The translations under genes and the position numbers were made by a program. The notes beneath the pieces are model-generated. The model saw nothing but the letters and a program-made list of their open reading frames with translations, was not told the DNA's origin and ran no database searches. A DNA stretch of 63,820 bases, the filler included, from Reclinomonas americana ATCC 50394 (lineage: Eukaryota), in NCBI GenBank assembly GCA_048213135.1. It is 12 parts of 12 records of this genome, joined end to end, with 100 filler letters (N's around TTAATTAATTAA, not from the genome) between each part and the next. Parts side by side here need not be neighbours in the genome. Positions count along the whole stretch, not along the records: positions 1 to 15,905 come from PS015980.1; 11 more parts are not named here. One strand, given 5' to 3'. This document shows, piece after piece, positions 3,207 through 23,437 of the stretch. Numbering within the stretch: position 1 is the first letter of the stretch; every line of letters begins with the position of its first letter.

Positions 3207-3358
3207 CTATGAGGGTCCAGCCGACGCCGCTCCGACCCCGCCTTCCGCAGCCACCACCGCACACAATCGCTTCAGCTCGTCGTGCACATAGGATGCCGAA
3301 ACGCGCGTCGCTTGCGGCCTCTGCATCACACGAAGATTGAGTTCCCGTTTCTCTCCCT

Positions 3359-3408
<50 letters not shown>

Positions 3409-6400
3409 CTTCCCTTCTCTTCCCTTGTCCTTACCCGACACGTTGGTCTCTCTTCGTCACTCACTCTCTCCCACCCTTCTCTCTCTTTCCCTCTCACCCC
3501 ATCTATCTCTCTCCCATCACGCAACCCAGCACTGCCGAATCAGACTGCGAACGTCCTCCGGCACAGCTGCCCGCACTTCATCGTCGTCCAGGTCACCAGG
3601 TGAAGCGCCTGCTTTCATGAGATCTCCGATTTTCATCAACGCCACTCCACTGAATGGCTCGCGGCGAGTGGCGATAAACCAGAGCAGCGAACCGAGTCCA
3701 TACACATCTGCTCGTTCATCATACTGCGAGTGGCGAATGGCAAATAAGTGAACATCGCTCTCACGGGGCACAGCGAGAATAGAGAATGACATCTATGCAC
3801 CTGCTGTTCCAACATGGCCTCTGGCGCAGCATACGCCGCCGTTCCGTGATTCGATTGCATCTTGCCGAGTGTGCCGTGAATCTTGGCCTCACCAAAGTCA
3901 CACACCTTGGCCACGAGTCGGTCCTCGCTGATGAGAATGTCTGCGGACATTTAGGGAGGAGGTAAGTGACTCGGACAGGGGCGACATGCAATCGGGGAAG
4001 GAGAGCAGGATAAGAAGCTTGGTTGACAACGAAGTTGCTCTCACTTCCCAGCTGAGTCACATTCTTCCTCAGAAGAGCAAACGACAGAGAGAGCTGGAAA
4101 AACTCGCCGAATAACTCGAACGGAATATCCACCTTCCTCGCTTGACGGAATCTGAGTTATCTCTCTCGCTCACTCAGATCGCCTTTCTCCATCTTCAGGT
4201 CACCCTCCGTGACACGCAACTCTGCGGCTTGAGATCACGATGCACAACTCGACGCGAGTGCATGTACACCACCGCCGATACCACTTGCAAGAGCAGGCTG
4301 AGCAGGTGTTGTGTCGTCGTGTGCTCATCCTTCACAAGGTCGTGCAGTGTCTCGGCGTTGCCTCGCTCTCCTTCTTGACCGACATACTCGAGAACGAGAC
4401 CGAGGCCACTCGGATCGTCGTTGCACACGGCCATCAGTTTCACAATGTGTGAGTGACTGTGCGCGCAGGCACATGAGTGACGGCGGTCAGCATTCGGGTG
4501 AGGTTAAGGCGAATGCACGCAACTCGAGCTGCATCAGTAGTGAATGCTCGTTCTCGAAGCAATCTCGAATGCGTCTCCAGTCAGCAGACTGCGCATCACG
4601 TGCCTGCTGCCTGACAAAGTAGCGCTTGTACGCCACAGTCTGCGAGTCGCCACAGAGTCGGAGAGTGGCGTGGAAGACGGCATTCTGGCCTGCGAATGTA
4701 GGTTTATATGAGACGAGCCTAGACTACTGCAAGTAAGAGCGAAAATCTCACCATTACCGATCTGTTTTGATGACAGTTCAAGCTCCGTGAAAGGCACAAC
4801 AGGAGCGCGGATGGCGAATCTCGCTGCTCTCTCCGTCACTATCTCGGCCGTCACATTGATGCGACACACATCTGCGCGCGAGGAGAACGAGATGAGAGAA
4901 TGAAGACGTATCAAATGGCATGAGCAGTCGCAACTCTCGTATGCTTGGAACAGCAGACGAATACTCTCGTGCTGTCCGTCGGGGAACAGTGTGTGGAGCG
5001 AGTCACGCACCAGTCGCATGACGCTCACGTACTCGGCGTCCTCGAGTGCAGATAGACGGGCCAGGTGAGACACGCGGTGGCGCACATCCCTCAAGCTCTC
5101 CACGGCTCGAATCTACGAAGGAGAGAATCCAGTGAGAAGAATAGGAACGCATACTGATGTCTGCACAAGTTGAAAGAAGAAAACACCAACAGAAAGGACA
5201 GTGTAGAACTCCCCGTTCCTTCCCTCTCCTCCTTCTTTCGTTCCCCTCTAATGCTGCCCTCCCTCCTTCACTCTTGCGTCTTCTTGTCCTCCCTCCTCTC
5301 CCCCACACCTTGGCTTCGTCAGCAAGCAAGCGGACGGCCAGCCGGTCTTCGTTCGTGACAGGATCGAGACGGACGCGACTCTCCAGCAGATCCTCGTCAC
5401 GACAAGCGGCGGCAGGAACAAAAGTAATGTACAAGAGCAGAGTGCTCAGCAGCGACACATCCATGCCCATTGTCACTCCACTCCGCTTGAATGTGCGAAT
5501 GGCTTCGCGGTTGGAAGGGAACAATTCGACAGAGCGCATGCGAATGTTGCCGCGCTTGTCCAGAGTCATTCGGCAGTATCTGAGATGCAGAATGAGTGGA
5601 GATGGCACAGCGCAGCTCGACAACATATCGAGCACCTCGGCGGTGGAGCTGGGAGGCAGAGTTGCTCAATGTCGAACTCGCCAGGAAAGAAGTCAGCAAC
5701 AAGTTGCTGCAGGAGGGAGCCGAGAGCCAGGGGAATGATCTCGTGCACGACTTCGGTGAGCATCAAGATTGGACGGCGGTCGCTGTGGCATTCGAGAGAG
5801 AAATGAGGAAGAAAGTCGTGCGCACGAGGCAGAGCACCTGCCATCAGGAACCTGAGAAAATCCATGTGGAAGAGGGTGCGAAGCTGGCCTTCCATCTCAT
5901 CCACCCTCCGTCGCAGCTGATCCCGTTCGTTGGCAAGATCCGCAAGCTGCTCACGAAGAGTATTCCTCTCGTCGGCGGCGACACGCTCAGCATCAGCGAG
6001 AGCTTGTTGGAGCTGACTGCGTTCGGCCGTGAGCGACTCAACATCAGCTTGGGTGGTGGTCAGTTCTTCAGTGAGCGAATGATATTCGGCAGAGATGGCC
6101 CTGACGGTGGCCTGAGATGCGGCAAATGACTCGGCGAGTTGGTCACGCTCCGCAGTGACATTGGCTGTGGAGAGTGAAGTGAGGAACGCAAGTCGGATCA
6201 CGAGCAGAAACAAAACATCAGCTGGCGAAACAACGAACCGAGGGCACGCTCATTGTCAGCCAGCTGGGTGGAGATTCGATCCCGCTCGGACTGCAACTGG
6301 GCATTCTTCTGGTGCTCTTCGACCTTGCTCAGTTGCAACTGGGCGACAACGTCTTCGTGCTCACGTCGCTGTCGATCCCATTCCCGCTGCTGCTGCTGCC

Positions 6401-7393
6401 GCTCCTGCTGCGATGCAGCAAGATCGCGCTGGAGTTGCGCAAGGAGTGCGTCCTTGTCGGCGAGCGTGCGTGCGACGGTGGGATCATCAACAGCCGACTG
6501 CAGTTTACGAGAGTGCGAGGGAGACACGGAACGGATGTGAGAAGTGAGTTTCACGAGCAACAAGAAGCAGAGAGTGGCACTCTCCGTCTCACCTGGCGTA
6601 CTGGCACTGCGTATTCGCCAGGAATGACACAGAAGGACAAACACAGATGGTGGAGCATGAGCACGAACACAGCATATGCCAACAGACATAATGGAGGGCA
6701 TAATACCTGCAGGAGGCGGGGATCGCGGCTGCTGTTGTTGCTGTTGGCGTGGTGGTGCTGGTTGCGCAGCGAGGCGGTCGAGCAAGTCGGCAACTTGCTG
6801 GTTGCCGTTGTCACGTGCCCACTGAGCCGCTGTTTTGCCCCGCTTGTTGACCATGGGAATGAGGTCGGGGAAGCCAGTGGCGAGGAGTTGCACAATGGCT
6901 TCGTGGCCTTCCCGGGCAGCATAATGCAGTGCAGTGGACTGCGGATACTCCGCACGGTCATTGGTGACGGCCCGCACCATCTCCGGCGGACATCGTCGCT
7001 CATCGGCAAGCAACCACTCCACCACTTGCAGATGCCCATTACGAGCAGCCCCCATCAGTGGCGTCCAGCCATAGTCGTTGACCATTTGTGCGAGTTCCGG
7101 ACCGACACCACTCTCCTCCCACAAATACTCCAACACAGAGTGGTGACCGCTGTTAGCGGCGAGGTGAAACGCCGAGCCGCCATTCAATCCCATCTCCTCT
7201 CTCTTCAGCAAAGTGCGTGCGCCCTCACGCGCCAGCAACTCGCGCAGTGCCTTCACATCGCCATTCGCCGCCATCTCATATGCTTTCTTCCGAGGAGCAC
7301 TGCCACCAAAGAGGCAAAAGCAGAAGCGCGAGTGAGAGAGAGATCTAGAGAGAATGCCACCTGACAACAACAGCAATGCACAGCACACCTCAT
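3207..7393 (-). CDS. Ankyrin repeats - coiled coil - HEPN-like domain - protein kinase (TKL-like), multi-exon
   Basis: Spliced in frame from ATGAG|GT (7393): MSAPRKKAYEM; ANK motifs (GWTPLMGAARNGH, STALHYAAREGH); heptad coiled coil; MDVSLLSTLLL...VESLRDVRHRVSH (Rx4H at 5065-5082); kinase IGNGQN, VAYK, HRDLKPQN, CDFG, GTAAYAAPE, DVYGLG, IRQCW; stop at 3207. Confidence 0.85.
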
Positions 7394-7740: not shown

Positions 7741-10700
7741 TCAGAGTTCCATCGTAAACTGCCCACATGCGTCGCGCAGTGCACGCATCACATCGAGCAC
7801 TTCCTGCGATGTCGGTCGTCTCGATTGCAAGCTCATGCAGCGCAAGCCGAGTTCGAACATGGGTTCGGCTATGCGCGGCGTCCACTCTGCTCCTCTGTCC
7901 ACCAATTCCATGGGGCGCAGCGAGGCAGGCGAGTCGTCCCATTCCACCGACCACTCCACCACAGTGGCCACGGGCTTGGCAGTGACCAGCTGCACCAGCA
8001 CCACGCCCATGCTGTACACGTCGTGTTTGGGGTGTGGACGGCGCACACGCATTGCCAGTGGGTCCATGTAGCCCAGCGTGCCGGCGGCGGTCGTCGTCTG
8101 GGAGATGGGAGATAGTGAGAGAATGAGGGAAGAGAGAGGAATCGATGACAACAAACCTTGCCATCTGCAATCGACCGCGCAATGCCAAAGTCACCGAGAC
8201 ATGGCTCGAAACGGTGATCGAGAAGCACGTTGGAGGGTTTGATATCGCGGTGCACAACATCATTCTGTGAGCGGAAATAAGTGAGGCAAGGCACGATGTA
8301 TGAAACATGACAGCAAGGAGAGAATAAAGCCGAGTGGAGAGTAGAGTACACGAGAAGCAGCGGAGACATCAACAGCGAAGACTGACGAGGAGAAAGAAAG
8401 AGACGAGCACACACACAGTAAGGGAGCCTCCACAGGGAGAGGAAACGAAGCGAGGCGTCCACATCGGTTAGACCTTGTGCAAGAACGCCACGGCCTCGGC
8501 CAGTCCGAGAGCAATTTGCACACGCTGCACAACAGAGAGTGGTGCTCGACCGGCGCGCGGTAGCAGCAACAGATCCTCCAGGTTGGGAACTCTGTGTGCT
8601 TTCACAGTGAGACGATGATGGATGAGAGGAAGGAGAGGAGGGAGATGGAAAACGCACTGCAGAGCCTTGTACACGAGACAGCGTGCCTTGTCGTCGCCCA
8701 CCGAGAAGCCGACAAGAGGCACAATGCGACGATCACGCAGGCGTCCGAGGGTGGCCACCTGTGAGAAGAGGGAAGAAGAATGAGGAGAGAGAGAAGAAAC
8801 AGGAGAGGGAGAGAAACACGAACCTCGCTCTCAAAGGACTCCATCGTCCATGGTGCCTCGGGATCGAGCACCTTGATGGCCACGTGCATCTCACGAAGCA
8901 GAGTGATGAACACGGCACCCTGACCACCCTCACCGACCTTGAGGCGGGGTGAGAATGAGTCGGTGGCTTGCACAATCTCGGACCACTCAAAGCGCTGCAC
9001 GGCGGTGTCGACTGTCGAAAGAGGAGATGAGAGGTGACAAATGAGTGAGAATGAAAGGACATTGAACACTGATATGAAGAAAGAAAGAGGACAAGAGACT
9101 GACCTTGGGTGAGGAGGAGATCCTGTCGCAGCTGGGAGACGAGTTGATTGCTTTCGTGCAGCTCTGCGGTAAGGTCGTCCTTGTCACGCAGGGCCTCAGT
9201 CAGCTGAGCGGTGATTTGATCTCGCTCTGCTTTCAGTTGGGAAATCTCTTGCTCATCCTCAGCATGAGCTCGCTGCCAGTCAGCGTTGGCTCGCTGCAAA
9301 TGCGCACTTCGTTGTTGCACTTCAGATAGACCACGTCGTAGCTCTGCGTTCGCAAGCTGCAGCTCCGTCCGCTGACGGTCGAACTCTCGCTTCTGCTGCT
9401 CTCGCTCCTGCTGTGACGCCACGAGATCGCGCTGAAGTTGGGTGACGAGCGCTTCTCTCTCGGCGAGATGGCGTGCCAACGCAGGATCATCACCAACCAC
9501 CTGCACAGGAGCCCGATGTGACACGAGAGAGCAAGTTGTGCATAGAGTGAACTCCATGATCGGTACTGACGCGGAGACTGTCGATCTCAGTCTCACCTGG
9601 CGTGCTGGCGCTACAAGTATCGCGGAGCAATACACAACGACACAGTATACGGTTGAGTGAGAGCAGGAATAACATGGATCACACAAGTTAACGGACAGGG
9701 AGACCACACCTGCTGGACGAAGAGGCTTTTCCATCAGAGGCTGTTGTCGTGGTGGCGATGGTTCCAAAGCGAGGCGATCGAGCAACTCGGCGACCTGAAC
9801 ATGTCCTCTTCCACGTGCCCACTGAGCCGCGGTCTTGCCCTTCTTGTTGACGACGGGAATAAGGTCGGGATAGCGAGTGGCGAGGAGTCGCACAATAGCT
9901 TCGTGGCCATTCTTGGCAGAGACATGAAGTGCAGTGGACTGTGGAAACATGTCACGGTCATCGGTAACCGCCCGCACCGTCTCTGGCGGACATCGTCGCT
10001 TGTCGGCTAGCAACCACTGCACCACTTGCAGATGGCCAAAGCAAGCGGCCCCAATCAACGGTGTTTGCCCATAGTCGTTGGCCAACTGCGCGAGTTGCGG
10101 TCCAATGCCAGTCTCCTCCCACAAGTACACCAGCACGGAGAGACGGCCCTGATGAGCGCCACATACAAATGCAGAGCGACCGTACTTATCCATCTCCTCT
10201 CTCTTCAGCAGCGTCTGCGCACCCTCGCGGGTCACTAATTCGCGCAGCGCCACCACATCTCCTTCTGTTGCCATCTCCCATGCTTTCTTTTGTCGGCGCT
10301 GCCTTGCAGCACTGCAACTAAGAAGTGCGGTGTGGTTTTAGAGGCCTAAAAAAATTAACAGTGAGTCGATGTGAAACTCGAACAAAATCTCACCTGTCGA
10401 TCGCACGGTGTGCTACTGCGAGTGTCTGTGGTCGAGCCGACGAACCGTGAATTTTTTTCAAGACAAATGACGCATGCGCACACGACGTGAGTGCCAAAGA
10501 CACGTGCCAACTCCGGTGAACCGGTACAACTACGTCTCACCCGTTGTACTGCGCATAAGGCACAACAAAAGAGCGAAGAATAAATTAGTCGACTTGTCAG
10601 TTATACAATCACCAAAGCACGAAAAACCAACAAAACTTGATGGCGGAGTAGGGGGAACAAGAACGCGACGTGACGGTGGTTGCAAAGCGAGGCGATCGAG

Positions 10701-11328
10701 TAAATCGGCCACTTTCCGTTTGTTATTGCTGCGTGCCAACCTGAGCTGCTGTCTTGCCCATCTTGTTGACCATGGGAATGAGGTCGGGGAAACGAGTGGC
10801 GAGGAGTCGCACAACGGCTTCGTGGCCTTCCATGGCAGCATAATGCAGTGCAGTTGACTGTGGATTGTCGTGGTCACTGGAGACCGCCCGCACCATCTCC
10901 GGCGGACATCGTCGCTCATCGGCAAACAACCACTCCACCACTTGCAGTTGCCCATTGTTGGCAGCAGTCAGCAGTGGCGTAAAGCCAATGTCGTCGACCA
11001 TGTGTGCGAGTAACGGCCCGACACCACTCTCCGCCCACAAATACTCCAACACAGAGAGATGACCTTGAAGAGCGGCACAGTCGAAAACAGAGCAGCCATA
11101 CTCATCCATCTCCTCTCTCTTCAGCAGTGTTTGTGCGCCCTCACGCGCCACCAATTTGCGCAGTGCCTTCACATCGCCTTCCTCTGCCATCTCCCATGCC
11201 TTCTTCCGTCGGGAGCGGGGAACACTGTGAACAACGCAAACACATGACGAATGACAATCACGACGAATGTGAGCATGCATTCTGACAATAACCCATCCTG
11301 AAATAGACACTCCTGCAACACACCTCAT
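7741..11328 (-). CDS. Double ankyrin module - coiled coil - IRAK/Pelle(RLK)-like kinase; one apparent +1 frameshift at ~10740
   Basis: Two ANK exons (~10640-11225, ~9710-10310) joinable through two small exons. Kinase: RFEWSEIVQATDSFSPRLKVGEGGQGAVF, VAIK, HRDIKPSNVLLD, DFG, GTLGYMDP, DVYSMGVVLVQLVT. Extra G in CAG-G-TTG relative to the paralogs. Confidence 0.85.
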
Positions 11329-11848
11329 GTTCTCGATTCCAACACAATAACGGCAATGGCTCGCACAACCAACTTTATCGCTGCCGATCTAGCAGCACAC
11401 TCGCAGCTCCTCCTCTTCCCAGCGCTTGCGGTTTGCGTATGAATTGGAGAGTTTTTCCGTGTCCTTGACGCGTAAATGCGACAAAATGGACGACGTCGTC
11501 ATTTTGTGACGTCGGATGCTTGCAAAGCCCCCAAACTGAAGCATCGTTTCACTTGGTGACGCGAGACGCACCACGTCCACCCAGGAGATCTCGAGAACAC
11601 TTCAACTGTCAAAGAGTGTGCCAGCAACGATGGTTAGCACACCTTCTAGCTCCGAAACTCGCAACGCGCCTGTTGCAGGTGCGCCCATTCTACGTATCAG
11701 GCACGCATGCTCATGATGGCCATCACGCGCCATGCCAACGCATCAACACTCGATGTCGGACTGTGCACTCTGATCGCGAAGTTGAATCATTCAAACGCTG
11801 AACACCCAGCAGCATGACTGCCATTGGTCATTCTCACTTACATTCATC

Positions 11849-14800
11849 TCACAGTTCCAGCGTAAACTGTCCACAAGCCTCGCGGAGTGCACGCATCATA
11901 TCGAGCACCTCCTCCGCCGTCGGTCGCTTCGATTGCACACTCATGCATCGCATGCCAAGCTCAAACATCGGTTCCGCGATGCGCGGCGTCCACTCTGCTC
12001 CTCCATCCACCAAATCCATCGCGCGCAGCGAGGCAGGCGAGTCGTCCCACTCCACGGACCACTCCACCACGGCGGCGACGGGCTTGCCAGTGACCAGCTG
12101 CACCAGCACCACACCCACGCTGTACACATCGTGCTTGGGCTGTGGACGACGCACACGCATCGCCAGTGGGTCCATGTAGTCCAGCGTGCCGGCGGCGGTC
12201 GTGGTCTGTGAGGTGAGAGAAGGTGAGACAGCGTAGAAGAGAGAAGGAGAATGGAGCAAACAAACCTTGCCATCGGCAATCGACCGTGCAATGCCAAAAT
12301 CACCGAGACAAGGCTCCAGGCGGTGATCGAGAAGCACATTGGAGGGCTTGATGTCGCGGTGCACCACCTCATTCTGCGAGCGGAGGTAAGGCGAGGCACG
12401 GCGCATGAAACCGCAACTGGAGGGCATGTGGAGAACGCATAACGCTTGCAGTGACAAAACAGCAAAAGAGTGACAAGGAGAGAAGAGAGAATACGAGCAA
12501 CAGAAGAGAGCAAAAGTGAGCAAGAGGGAGAATGAGCGGGAGAGAAGAGTGCGGAGGTGGAGTGCACGAGAGACAGAGAGAAGTAACACAAAAAGAGTGA
12601 CAAGGAGAGAAGTAAGATAGAGTGCACCCACAAAGAGCAAGAAAAAGGAGTGAGGAAGGACAACGCGAGAAACTAGGAGATGCAAGACGAACAGCCGAGT
12701 GAAAAAGGACAGAAGAGCGAAGAACGCAATGGCATCGTGCACCAGTGACTGACTCAGAGGGTCAGCCACATTGCACAAACCTTGTGCAAGAACACCACGG
12801 CCTCGGCCAATCCGAGACCAATCTGCACGCGCTGTATGACAGAGAGTGGTGCATGACCGGCACGCGGAAGTAGCAGCAGATCCTCCAGGTTGGGAACTCT
12901 GTGTGCATTCACAGTGAGACAATGATTGAGAAAGGGAGAAAGAGAGAAATGGACACGCACTGCAGGGCCTTGTAAACGAGACAGCATGTCTTCTCGACAC
13001 CCACCGAATAACCTACAAGAGGCACAATTCGACGATCGCGCAGGCGTCCGAGGGTGGCCACCTGCGAGGATGAAATGAATGATGAGGAGAAAGAAGAAAC
13101 AGGAGAGGGAGAGAGACACAGACCTCACTCTCGAACGACTCCATCGTCCACGGAGCGTCGGGATCGAGCACCTTGATGGCCACGTGCATCTCACGAAGCA
13201 GGGTGATGAACACGGCACCCTGGCCGCCCTCGCCGACCTTGAGGCGCGGTGAGAAGGTGTCGGTGGCTTGCACAATCTCGGGCCACTCGAAACGCTGGAC
13301 GGCGGTGTCGACTGTGGAGAGCGTGATGGGGAAGAGAGAAATGGTGAGAAAGAAGGACAAAAAGCACCGAAAGGTAGAGACGGCAAGACATATACCTTGA
13401 ATAAGGAGGAGGTCCTGTCGCAGCTGGGAGACGAGTTGATTGCTTGCTTGCAGCTGCGTGGTGAGATCGTCTTTCTCAAGCAGAGCTGCAGTCAGTTGAG
13501 AGGCAATTTGATCCCTCTCGGCTCGGAGTTGGGCATTCCTCTGCTGTTCCTCGGCCACGCTGTGCTGCAGCTCCGCGTTGGCTTGCTGACATTCAGTGAC
13601 TGCCCACTGCAGTCGCGCGATCTCCTGCTGCCGGTCACCATGAGCTTGCTGCAACTCAGCATTGGCTTGCTGCACATAGGCGACAATGGCCTCGTTCTCC
13701 CGTCGCTGTCGATCCCAAGCTCGCTGCTGCTCCTCTCGCTCAAGCTGCGCTGCCGCAAGCTCGCGCTGGAGTTGGGCGACGAGAGCATCCTTCTCGCCGA
13801 GCTGGCGTGCCAATGCGGCGAGATCATCACCAACAGCCTGCAACTGAAACCAGCGTGCCCACAAACNNNNNNNNNNNNNNNNNNNNNNNNNNNNNNNNNN
13901 NNNNNNNNNNNNNNNNNNNNNNNNNNNNNNNNNNNNNNNNNNNNNNNNNNNNNNNNNNNNNNNNNNNNNNNNNNNNNNNNNNNNNNNNNNNNNNNNNNNN
14001 NNNNNNNNNNNNNNNNNNNNNNNNNNNNNNNNNNNNNNNNNNNNNNNNNNNNNNNNNNNNNNNNNNNNNNNNNNNNNNNNNNNNNNNNNNNNNNNNNNNN
14101 NNNNNNNNNNNNNNNNNNNNNNNNNNNNNNNNNNNNNNNNNNNNNNNNNNNNNNNNNNNNNNNNNNNNNNNNNNNNNNNNNNNNNNNNNNNNNNNNNNNN
14201 NNNNNNNNNNNNNNNNNNNNNNNNNNNNNNNNNNNNNNNNNNNNNNNNNNNNNNNNNNNNNNNNNNNNNNNNNNNNNNNNNNNNNNNNNNNNNNNGGCAA
14301 TATGCAAGGCAGTGGATTGGCCATCAGTGACTGCCCGCACCATTGCCGACGGGCAGCGTTGCTCCTCGGCAAGCAACCATTCCACCACCTCCACTTGCCC
14401 ATTGAAGGACGCTTCCATCAGCGGGGTTACGCGATTATCAGTGACCGCGAGTGCAAGTTGTGGCCCGACGCCACTCTCCGCCCACAAGTATTGCAACATA
14501 GCGAGATGGCCACCGGAAGCGGCATTGGAGAAAGCCGTACCACCACCACTGTCCATCTCATCTCTCTTCAACAGACTCTCCGCGCCCTCACGTGACACCA
14601 ACTCGCGCAGTGCCTCCACATTGCCACTCGCCGCCATCTCCCATGCCTGCATCCTTTGCTGTTGCCTGTGATATAAACAGAACGGGAACACCGCTGTCAG
14701 CAATCACCACAACAAAACATGTGACAGACCTTGACAAACACACCTCGGTTGTTCTGGATAACGAGAGAGGTGTGAGCAGGGCAAGCAAAAGTATGAAAAA

Positions 14801-15444
14801 AGCACAACACGCACCCAGCGGCGCAGCCAGGCGATCGAGCAACTCAGCCACTTGCTCCTTGCCATTCGAGCGTGCCGTCTGCGCCGCCGTCTTGCCCTCC
14901 TTATCGGTCATCGCAATGAGATCCGGGTAACAGGAGGCAAGAAGAAAAACAATGACTTCGTGGCCTTCGTCGGCTGCACAGTGCAGAGCAGTGGACTGCG
15001 GAAAGTCGTCGCCATCATTCGAGACAATGCGCACCATCTCCGGCGGACACCGTCGCTCATCGTCGAGCAACCACTCCACCACATGCAAATGTCCATTGTA
15101 GGCGGCCTCCATCAGAGGCGACCATCCGTGCATGTCGACCATTTGTGCGAGTTGTGGCCCGACTCCACTCTCCTCCCACAGATACTCCAACACCGACAAG
15201 TGGCCGCGTTCAACAGCACAGCAGAATGCAGAGTTGCCGTACTTGTTCATCTCCTCTCTCCTCAGCAGAGTGTGGGCGCCCTCGCGTGCCACCAACTCGC
15301 GCAGTGCCTGCACATTGCCCTCAGCTGCCATCTCCCATGCTTTCTTCTTCCTCTTGCGACGAGAACTGCGCGCGGGACAAAGAAGTGGATGTGTGAGAGT
15401 GCTGATGATGAATCCGCAGTGGTGTGAAGCACAACGTGCCTCAT
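11849..15444 (-). CDS. Double ankyrin module - coiled coil - IRAK/Pelle(RLK)-like kinase (paralog; gap at 13867-14296)
   Basis: ANK exons ~14815-15365 and 14297-14665 joined in frame by a 10-nt exon (14744-14753). Kinase exons are near-identical to those at 7741-9010 (GEGGQG, HRDIKPSN, DFG, GTLDYMDP). First intron predicted as GC-AG. Confidence 0.85.
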
Positions 15445-15663
15445 GCTTTGCTGAAGATGTCGATGAAGTGGGCTTCCACCAGCTCTCTCACGCGCTTCGT
15501 TTAGTTGTTTTTCCGAGCGCAGGACAACTTTTCGTCGACGACGAGGAAGAAGAAGGGGAAGAGGATAAGAATAGGAGCAGGAGGAGGAGGACATGGATAT
15601 CCACGGGCTGCGGCGCATGACGGGGAGATTTCGCGAGGAAATTACTGTGAATCCTGGTGTCGC

Positions 15664-15764: not shown

Positions 15765-16705
15765 GCAGCAGCAGGTTCCTTGTGTGTGTGTGTTCGACCT
15801 CGGAGCTCCGAACAAGTCGAGCAACAACAACAACAACAACGTTAACAACAACACAACAACAACAACAACTTTACTAATCCAAACAGCAACACAGCTGCAT
15901 GATGANNNNNNNNNNNNNNNNNNNNNNNNNNNNNNNNNNNNNNNNNNNNTTAATTAATTAANNNNNNNNNNNNNNNNNNNNNNNNNNNNNNNNNNNNNNN
16001 NNNNNTGTGTTTGCAAGCTTGGTAGAACGAGGCAGAGTGTGAGTTATGCAGGTGGGAAGAGGGTCATCCGTGGATGTAGAAAGCCAAGACGAGGCGGAGA
16101 ACACACAATTTCCGAAGTTGAAATCGCACGAAACCGGCGTTGCTGGTATTGCGCACGCGCGCTTTCGCGGAGCAATGTTGGGGAAAGACGCACGCTCGGG
16201 AAAAGGGCGAAAGAACGTAGTCAGGGGTGAACTGATGGAGTGGAAGGAGGAAACGCGAAGAGGAGAGGGCGAAGGCGAAGACGTCGAAGAAGATGAGGAG
16301 AAACGAAAGGCTGCCATTGACTGGTGGCAATTGAGGCTGACGGTTGAGCATCTCTCGCCCAGTGAGCAGCACAATGTTGTTGGTGTCCTCGCCTGTCATG
16401 AAGCCGCTGGGATCGATATCGCATGCGCAGACAACACGAGAAATCGAAATCGAACAAATTGGAGGCGAGGACAAAATCTTCTCCTCCTCTCTGCTTGCGG
16501 TCGCATGCCGCACAATGTGCATGGATTATCTTTCATTCAAACCCGTTGAAGCTGTGAGCTGAAGGGGGCTTCAAGTTTCACAGTGTCCATTGTCCACAGC
16601 GAGCAACCCGCGCGCGCGCTTTTCATTTTTTTCGTCGTTTGCCCCCCACTTGAACCTGCGTGTGTGAGGAGAGTGAGAGAGAGTGTGTGTCTCTTGTGTG
16701 TGAGT

Positions 16706-17342
16706 ATGACGCATCGCTGGCAAGGTGTTGGCAGTGGAGTGCTCATCTGGGATGGGCTCATTGCGGTGGACTCGTTTGGCGCGGTTTTGAGAGGAGAGTT
16801 GGCGGGGACGCGCGCCTACTTTCTCACACATGTGCATGCTGGTGAGAGAGAGGGGGGAAGGGGAAGAGAGCAGAGAGATGAGAGGGGAAAGAGAGATGAG
16901 AGAGCGTGTGTGTGAGCTCATGACAACTCTCTCATGACTCTCACTCACTCTCACACACGCGCGCATCTGTCTCTCTCACACACATCCACACACGCACTGT
17001 CGCTCTCTCTCTCTCCCCATCACACACATCACGCATGTGTCAGTTGCGTCATCAATTTCACTCTCTCTCATTGATCATTGATCATTCATCAATCATCAGA
17101 TCATTACACTGGAATGCGACGCGACTGGAACGGTGGGAAGATCTACTGTACGCAGACGAGCATGGACTTGTTGCGATTGCGGTTTCCGTTGCCTGTGGAC
17201 ATGTTTGTTGCGTGGGCGAGTGAGTGGAGAGAGTGGNNNNNNNNNNNNNNNNNNNNNNNNNNNNNNNNNNNNNNNNNNNNTTAATTAATTAANNNNNNNN
17301 NNNNNNNNNNNNNNNNNNNNNNNNNNNNNNNNNNNNAGGGAG

Positions 17343-21580: not shown

Positions 21581-21747
21581 NNNNNNNNNNNNNNNNNNNN
21601 NNNNNNNNNNNNNNNNNNNNNNNNNNNNNNNNNNNNNNNNNNNNNNNNNNNNNNNNNNNNNNNNNNNNNNNNNNNNNNNNNNNNNNNNNNNNNNNNNNNN
21701 NNNNNNNNNNNNNNNNNNNNNNNNNNNNNNNNNNNNNNNNNNNNNNN

Positions 21748-22559: not shown

Positions 22560-23437
22560 AGAGAGTAGAGAGAGAGAGAGAGACACACACACACACACAC
22601 ACACACACGAGAGAGAGAGAGAGAGAGAGAGNNNNNNNNNNNNNNNNNNNNNNNNNNNNNNNNNNNNNNNNNNNNTTAATTAATTAANNNNNNNNNNNNN
22701 NNNNNNNNNNNNNNNNNNNNNNNNNNNNNNNGAGAGAGAGAGAGAAGAGGTTTACGACGTCTCGCGACATGGTCGCTACAGACACACAGTGGGAGGTAGC
22801 GAAGGTGATGTGGTGTGCGTGCGTGGATTGACCACCGCCGAGTTGTTTCGAGCGAGGAAAGGGACAGCAGGGACAAGGGCCTGGAAAGCAGCTTCTCTCT
22901 GTCTCCGCCAGCTCTCACTCGCGGTCGCTCACGTCCGCAACACGAAGCTTCTCTTACCCGCTTCTTTCTCGCAAACAAACATCGAGGTTTAGACTCTTCC
23001 TCCCTTCCTGCTTCTCACCCTCGTACACACGCACAAACGCACGGAATGCTCTGCCTTCTCGCGCTCACTGCTCTTTCCTCTCTTCTCTCCCTCTCTCTCT
23101 CACACACACGCACACGCACACACTCTCCCTGCTCGTCATCAGCAAGTTGCATCTCTTGCCTAAAACTCGCCAAGCATCGTGAGAGGGACAGCAAGCGAGA
23201 CATTCCAGAAACGCAGAGTACTCAGCGCACGCGCGTGCGTGTGCTAGAGAGAGAGACTGAGTTTCGCTACGCTTCCTCCTGCTCTCCGTCTCTCCCGTCT
23301 TCTCTCTCCCTTTCTATTCTCACTCACACGCACACACTAATTGTAACACCACACAGTCTCTCAGTCGCTCTCTTCTCTCTCCCTCCCTCCCTCTCTCCCT
23401 CCATCCCTTCTCCCTCCCTTCTGCCCCATCACTCAAC

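Follow-up and report, generated by a model that had tools for sequence, protein, structure and literature searches.

The window analyzed here, a composite stretch of 63,820 nucleotides (nt) from Reclinomonas americana ATCC 50394 (GCA_048213135.1), carries between positions 3207 and 7393 of its minus strand a gene predicted to encode a protein of 961 amino acids (aa), in which an ankyrin module, a long coiled coil, a middle domain of about 250 aa (here termed MID) and a protein kinase domain follow one another. The gene is the terminal member of a same-strand tandem array of ankyrin-coiled coil-kinase genes. Our preferred interpretation, which is tentative and to which we give somewhat less than even chances, is that the IRAK/Pelle-like kinase of this family has been replaced here by MID and a distinct Ser/Thr kinase, and that MID is possibly a divergent HEPN domain.

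The gene model was obtained from stop-to-stop open reading frames (ORFs) and three-frame translation, which revealed ankyrin, coiled-coil, helical and kinase segments in shifting frames, with short gaps ending in GT...AG between them. Splicing by coordinates joins these segments into 12 predicted coding exons (minus strand, from high to low: 7393-7389, 7299-6707, 6606-6593, 6497-6239, 6164-5636, 5579-5309, 5112-4752, 4689-4524, 4456-4221, 3940-3801, 3723-3526 and 3320-3207), which form a single coding sequence of 2886 nt running from the start codon ATG at 7393-7391 to the stop codon TAG at 3209-3207. The initial annotation had set the limits of the element at 3207 and 7393 and had read it as one spliced frame joining ankyrin, coiled coil, helical domain and kinase; the frame predicted here coincides exactly with those limits and stays open through all four parts. 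All 11 introns are of the GT-AG type, with lengths of 56 to 280 nt, the acceptor is CAG in 10 of them, and the stretch from 3207 to 7393 is free of N runs. Unusual donors recur at 4523, 4220 and 3525, and also at 6238 and 6668; they take the forms GTTGCGTG, used three times among the 11 introns, and GTTCGT, as against the common GTAAGT and GTGAGT, and this unusual form may be typical of introns in the source organism. The last intron (3525-3321) harbors an unstranded (TC)28 microsatellite at 3350-3405 (Tandem Repeats Finder, score 98). Two other models were set aside: a first one of 1016 aa, which ran through intron 1, and one of 951 aa starting at the ATG at 7274, which was replaced by the start at 7393.

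The first predicted coding exon (7389-7393, minus strand) consists of ATGAG, that is, a Met codon plus 2 nt, and is followed by the donor GTGTGC and an 89-nt intron (7388-7300). Its phase-2 donor matches the sole acceptor ahead of the ankyrin exon and yields the N-terminus M-S-A-P-R-K-K-A-Y-E. The start was placed at ATGAG/GT (7393-7389) because the residues K-K-A-[WY]-E, which are kept in all paralogs ahead of the first ankyrin Met, can be reached in phase only from there. The string ATGAGG also lies upstream of two of the four other ankyrin modules in the window, at 11328 and 15444; at 15444 the following intron would begin with GC and not with GT. The second exon (6707-7299, minus strand) encodes the ankyrin-repeat module (aa 2-200) and a Q/P-rich linker. 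The best-looking donor after this exon does not share its phase with the best-looking acceptor ahead of the coiled coil, and a 14-nt micro-exon (6593-6606, minus strand; aa 200-204), flanked by introns 6706-6607 and 6592-6498, was adopted because, with the strongest-looking sites, it brings the ankyrin and coiled-coil exons back into one frame. A neighboring paralog (near 9600) presents an equal 14-nt micro-exon with equal flanks, which likewise restores the frame. The product of the micro-exon reads V-P-V-R-Q in one paralog and A-P-A-R-Q in the other.

The ankyrin module and the long coiled coil that had been recognized at the outset are both borne out. Profile matches to the ankyrin exon lie well above the Pfam cut-offs, with E = 2.2e-24 and 86.3 bits for Ank_2 (cut-off 27.3) and E = 5.9e-20 and 70.7 bits for Ank (cut-off 21.1), the latter in three stretches. 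A search for longer proteins with this exon returned 170 matches at E <= 1e-5, and the 120 of these that are listed are generic ankyrin proteins, none of which carries the Pfam family HEPN_DZIP3 (PF18738); among the matches listed, the nearest specific relatives of the module are the protein P0008 (49% identity) and a Symbiodinium protein, P0092 (45% identity over 59% of the query). The coiled coil (5890-6479, minus strand; aa 211-382) is encoded by exons 6497-6239 and 6164-5636, which are separated by a 74-nt intron. Its 172 residues include neither P nor G and are rich in E/K/R/D/Q, which make up 29-71% of most 28-residue windows, and many coiled-coil Pfam families match the region at E values of about 1e-4, every one of them under its cut-off. 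In addition, an ungapped alignment pairs the spliced sequence with the uninterrupted coiled coil of a neighboring gene (38% identity over 135 aa, E = 8e-26); it spans the 6239/6164 junction, and A-E-R-D-Q is kept just past this junction.

Because the splices are backed by paralogs, the coiled-coil alignment crosses the 6239/6164 junction without gaps and exon 6164-5636 encodes both coiled coil and the beginning of MID, the ankyrin part and the helical-kinase part belong, judging from the sequence, most likely to one gene. It could be argued that the model fuses two genes, an ankyrin-coiled coil gene (7393-6239) and a MID-kinase gene (6164-3207) with separate transcripts, or that it describes a decaying chimera, the untranscribed product of local duplications. 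Truncated copies do exist in the array, in which two of the five ankyrin modules (11190 and 15331) come without coiled coil or kinase, and N runs are numerous in the assembly, which is a draft. Against this stand the frame, which stays open for 961 codons in 12 exons joined at canonical sites, as well as the alignment over the junction and the exon common to the coiled coil and the start of MID, and we regard such a fusion or chimera as quite improbable.

The comparison with the rest of the array is the basis for placing the gene in a tandem family. Five ankyrin modules are present in the window, with starts at 15331, 14637, 11190, 10274 and 7274, and that of the studied gene is 61-75% identical to the four other copies; three coiled coils are present, each after an ankyrin module. 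Pfam matches and alignments identify two neighbors on the minus strand, at 7741-10337 and 11849-14703, as ankyrin-coiled coil-IRAK/Pelle-like kinase genes, the kinase exons of which extend over 7741-9183 and 11849-13400 (minus strand). Besides the ankyrin module, these genes share with the studied gene the coiled coil (38-45% identity), the micro-exon and the start exon. They differ from it in that their coiled coil passes directly into a kinase opening with F-E-W-S-E-I-V-Q-A-T-D-S-F, without any MID, which is single copy within the window, and in that their kinases are 27% identical to that of the studied gene. The simplest history suggested by these sequences would be that of a young ankyrin-coiled coil-kinase family in which the output half was exchanged in one copy. 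As regards the layout of the array, in which the paralogs occupy 7741-15487 (minus strand), the ankyrin modules starting at 15331 and 11190 stand alone, with neither coiled coil nor kinase attached; of the full genes, one (14637-11849) is broken by a 429-N gap and the other spans 10274-7741; a unit composed of an ankyrin-only copy and a full gene seems to have been duplicated.

The kinase domain of the studied gene (3228-4782, minus strand; approximately aa 668-955) is distributed over six exons. The Pfam profile Pkinase matches three of the exon ORFs with E values of 4.6e-13, 8.4e-8 and 4.9e-4, the first two of which alone exceed the 31.7-bit cut-off, and the matches cover profile positions 56-127, 128-202 and 169-244. 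In agreement with the initial annotation, which had described a kinase with intact VAxK, HRD, DFG and APE motifs, the domain contains VAYK (696-699), HRDLKPQN (805-812), DFG (826) and APE (850), together with GNGQNA (676), in which the third G is replaced by A, and DVYGLG. By its motifs it is apparently an active Ser/Thr kinase and no pseudokinase. Exon 4222-4455 is matched by 245 kinase sequences of the PDB at E <= 0.001, and a search with the same exon for longer homologous proteins retrieved none out of 386 candidates. Past the last kinase exon there are 37 codons to the stop, and the kinase is not followed by a KEN domain: in six ORFs downstream of or around the stop codon, nothing in Pfam rises above noise at E <= 0.1.

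MID (4864-5889, minus strand; approximately aa 383-640), the candidate HEPN domain, is encoded by the end of exon 6164-5636, exon 5579-5309 and the start of exon 5112-4752. It appears to be mostly helical, ordered and hydrophobic-patterned, and thus to be more than a linker. The two strings on which a HEPN domain had originally been proposed are both present. DVSLLSTLLL (5432-5461, minus strand; aa 507-516), read directly from the sequence, is helical in a low-confidence model; the initial annotation describes the D(I/V)xLL..LL pattern as typical of DZIP3-type HEPN domains. The second string, VESLRDVRHRVSH (5103-5065, minus strand; aa 561-573), contains RHRVSH (5065-5082, minus strand; aa 568-573), an Rx4H motif with a polar residue after R, and D-V-S-L-L sits 61 residues upstream of it. 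In the available text of a published survey, the HEPN motif is given as Rx4-6H, with N, D or H as the predominant residue following R (PMC3710099), and R568-H-R-V-S-H573 fits this rule for the catalytic motif, as had been claimed.

How much weight these strings can bear was gauged by shuffling the 235-aa middle region 20000 times with its composition preserved; the outcome is suggestive only, since the patterns were picked after seeing the sequence. R[NHD]xxxH occurs in 11% of the shuffles and D[IVL]xLL in 9%; the two together, correctly ordered and with a spacing of 30-100 residues, are seen in 0.19%. These figures bear in opposite directions on a reading in which MID would have nothing to do with HEPN and would be a helical linker or regulatory domain specific to the lineage, RHRVSH and DVSLL would be strings arising by chance in a helical sequence rich in R, H and L, and the gene would encode an ordinary ankyrin-coiled coil-kinase signaling protein. 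The frequency of the first pattern alone, and the occurrence of nine Rx4-6H strings along the first, 1016-aa model, would favor such a reading, as would the neighboring genes, which work with the coiled coil joined directly to the kinase; the rarity of the two motifs in order and spacing speaks against it, and some 250 aa of ordered, hydrophobic-patterned sequence exceed a linker. We consider it rather less likely than not.

A hint in favor of HEPN, below threshold, comes from language-model likeness in the ESM Atlas. MID is split by two introns and all searches and models used its unspliced exon pieces separately, so that the negative results reported below are weaker than they look. Among the named look-alikes of the motif-bearing piece 4753-5112, the first rank is held by a cluster of DUF4559 (PF15112), which we take to be the CXorf38 family, with a score of 0.84; at rank 4 there is a cluster with HEPN_DZIP3 in 10% of its members (0.82) and at rank 8 one of which 55% of the members have HEPN_DZIP3 and 12% DUF4559 (0.76). 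The lead was given some weight because HEPN_DZIP3 had been proposed from the motifs beforehand, and this same point counts against the unrelated-domain alternative, as the family proposed in advance surfaces, out of all Pfam families, among the nearest named clusters. In a single-sequence AlphaFold model of the same piece, with a predicted local distance difference test (pLDDT) of 60, RHRVSH lies inside a helix formed by residues 7-19.

Several results weigh against the HEPN assignment and speak for the unrelated-domain alternative. The Atlas look-alikes are sub-threshold: all scores fall short of the 0.9 line, the recognition value is 2083, below 2300, and three out of ten look-alikes sharing a family is "probably wrong" by the rule of the tool; the piece 5309-5578 gave no usable Atlas match. 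Profile searches recognized no HEPN in the MID pieces, with zero Pfam families at E <= 10 for pieces 5636-5895, 5309-5578, 4753-5112 and 4888-5112, none for MID at E <= 1 in the ORFs containing its pieces, none with PADLOC and NCBIfam, and no match of the separately scored pieces to the PF18738 profile itself (cut-off 27 bits). Independently of MID, a search for PF18738 itself in an E. coli record and 14 control genomes gave no match. At the sequence level, phmmer with piece 4753-5112 against 1.84 billion representative proteins produced a single match, a repeat protein, which was rejected as clearly spurious; phmmer against the PDB with two MID pieces found nothing at E <= 10, and none of 310 candidates was a longer homologous protein for piece 4753-5112. 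No homolog of MID turned up in the sequence libraries searched, elsewhere in the window, in 122 stored proteins or in 47 metagenome loci, the latter having been found through the ankyrin alignment and giving a best tblastn E value of 0.084. As to structure, a HEPN domain is built on an all-alpha core of four helices, the last of which begins with the motif. Foldseek with the low-confidence piece models retrieved no PDB match at E <= 0.001, generic four-helix bundles score equally with the low-confidence model, the motif (residues 11-16 of the pLDDT 60 model) would be out of register with H107 of the toxin named in 7ae2, and the single-sequence AlphaFold model of piece 5309-5578 has a pLDDT of 48 and some strands.

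Taken with the motifs, these data leave chances that we judge to be about even for MID belonging, as a highly divergent HEPN domain, with the DZIP3/CXorf38 kind; R568 and H573 would then be its catalytic pair. The HEPN domain claimed in the initial annotation thus keeps the RHRVSH motif and a sub-threshold Atlas likeness in its favor, and fails to be recognized by any profile or sequence match in the exon pieces. Even with the pieces taken separately, the negatives show that MID is no close member of Pfam HEPN_DZIP3; if it is a HEPN domain, it would be a far outlier and no regular member of that family.

A helical domain placed immediately before a kinase in the chain would also be expected of a membrane-acting executioner module of the MLKL type, or of a death-fold module, acting in place of an RNase. 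MLKL comprises a four-helix bundle and a brace, followed by a pseudokinase, and the family studied here has an immune-like character, with IRAK/Pelle-like kinases adjoining. Nonetheless, the MID pieces show no HeLo, MLKL or death-fold Pfam match at E <= 10, the Atlas look-alikes point elsewhere, and the studied kinase, unlike the pseudokinase of MLKL, keeps all catalytic motifs; an executioner module of this sort seems to us very unlikely.

The divergent-HEPN interpretation invites comparison with systems that couple kinase and HEPN-superfamily domains. RNase L combines N-terminal ankyrin repeats, a kinase-fold domain and a HEPN-superfamily nuclease in one chain, and the studied protein resembles it in presenting N-terminal ankyrin repeats, a kinase-fold domain and possibly such a nuclease in one chain. 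The order is, however, ankyrin-pseudokinase-KEN in RNase L and ankyrin-coiled coil-MID-kinase in the studied protein, which is without KEN, has a kinase that keeps VAYK, HRD, DFG and APE, and carries a candidate HEPN domain that is only predicted and of a different family from KEN. Because the kinase looks active and has no KEN domain behind it, the RNase L-like architecture described in the initial annotation is an analogy of parts and not a homology of architecture. In IRE1 the kinase controls the oligomerization of the RNase, and the likeness lies in a kinase adjoining a HEPN-superfamily domain. The two differ in order, KEN coming after the kinase in IRE1 and the candidate domain before it here. 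The IRE1 family is also ancient, being traceable to the last eukaryotic common ancestor according to the available text of the survey (PMC3710099), whereas the studied gene is single copy in the window and MID has no relative in the databases searched.

Further parallels may be found in two HEPN families, DZIP3 and CXorf38, which in the available text of the 2013 survey are reported to be fused to ankyrin, NACHT, CARD and DEATH domains, CXorf38 being active (PMC3710099). For DZIP3-type HEPN domains, the same text names ankyrin as one of the fusion partners and describes expansions in particular lineages, with architectures that vary; kinase is absent from the DZIP3 partners in the survey table and is given with KEN only (PMC3710099). 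Further literature, insofar as it was available, mentions NACHT (in cnidarian fusions), TRADD-N and other partners of HEPN, and no kinase. The studied protein recalls the DZIP3/hRUL138-type domains (PF18738; cnidarians, molluscs and Capsaspora) in its ankyrin fusion, in the R-polar-x3-H form of the motif and in the Atlas lead, but differs from them in having a kinase, which is no listed partner, in leaving PF18738 unmatched and in coming from a protist-like and not an animal genome. CXorf38/DUF4559, which ranks first among the named Atlas look-alikes of piece 4753-5112, likewise lacks a Pfam match in MID, and its zinc ribbon insert was not seen in the studied protein. No such fusion of a DZIP3-type HEPN domain with a kinase is described in the titles or abstract openings of the best-matching literature, and within these bounds the statement that the architecture is not known from described proteins holds.

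If the proposed replacement took place, the IRAK/Pelle-like kinase of the family would have been swapped for an orphan, mostly helical domain of some 250 aa and a distinct, apparently active kinase. The ankyrin repeats, shared with the IRAK-like neighbors, would bind an upstream partner or signal as a common input, and a parallel coiled coil would hold two chains together. HEPN activity needs dimerization, according to the available text of the survey (PMC3710099), and a coiled-coil dimer would suit the HEPN assignment because the composite Rx4H site requires two HEPN domains; the paired chains would let these form a composite RNA-binding or RNA-cleaving site. The kinase, in turn, might regulate assembly or relay the signal by auto- or trans-phosphorylation, and the protein as a whole would be a signaling or conflict-type effector built by domain shuffling. 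The roles of the coiled-coil dimer, the ankyrin input and the kinase relay are weaker inferences than the domain assignments, and ligand triggering, antiviral defense and cell death are speculation. A stronger version would make of the protein an independent counterpart of RNase L and IRE1, in which a HEPN RNase of the DZIP3/CXorf38 type precedes an active kinase, is dimerized by the coiled coil and is switched through the ankyrin repeats by a partner or ligand. Such a protein, a protist RNA-cleaving immune or stress effector with phosphorylation and RNase coupled and born by an output swap in an IRAK-like family, strikes us as unlikely.

The remainder of the window provides the context in which the array is found. 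Of the 166 further ORFs of at least 110 aa, 150 were scanned against Pfam, the 16 omitted being mostly scanned otherwise or overlapping scanned ORFs; the scan detected no HEPN domain and assigned families to two of the 150. Ordinary eukaryotic genes occur at 26758-27819 (minus strand), 40193-41686, 35448-36071 and 55180-55731 (all plus strand), corresponding, respectively, to a WD40 propeller, D123, a Peptidase_S9 fragment and ELMO/CED-12, and two tRNA genes are located at 25819-25891 and 36275-36344 (both minus strand). At 48385-49063 (plus strand), the kinase segment has weak tblastn matches (E values from 6.6e-6 to 0.003, with no Pfam match of the ORFs there at E <= 1e-5), which suggest that this region holds a further, unrelated kinase gene. 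The larger N gaps are those at 13867-14295, 21581-21747, 44389-45159 and 56557-56823. Eleven pairs of runs of 44 N, with exactly 12 bases between the two runs of each pair, are filler at the joins of the parts of the window, at 15906-16005, 17237-17336, 22632-22731, 26706-26805, 29334-29433, 34890-34989, 38495-38594, 41734-41833, 53623-53722, 58165-58264 and 62700-62799.

What the gene means for the biology of kinase-linked HEPN domains depends on the nature of MID. Should the HEPN assignment hold, the protein would be a HEPN effector in a shuffled immune-type architecture; otherwise, it would be one more multidomain kinase, carrying an orphan helical domain as an insert, and of local interest only. 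If MID were a working HEPN RNase, the gene would represent a second, independent eukaryotic coupling of kinase and HEPN nuclease, with a live kinase and with the order of IRE1 and RNase L reversed, and would offer a natural test of whether dimerization of HEPN sites under the control of a kinase is a general principle of design. The locus itself displays module swapping in what appears to be a young tandem family, in which the sensor half, composed of the ankyrin module and the coiled coil, is kept and the output half is exchanged, a pattern such as has been described for immune-type gene expansions.

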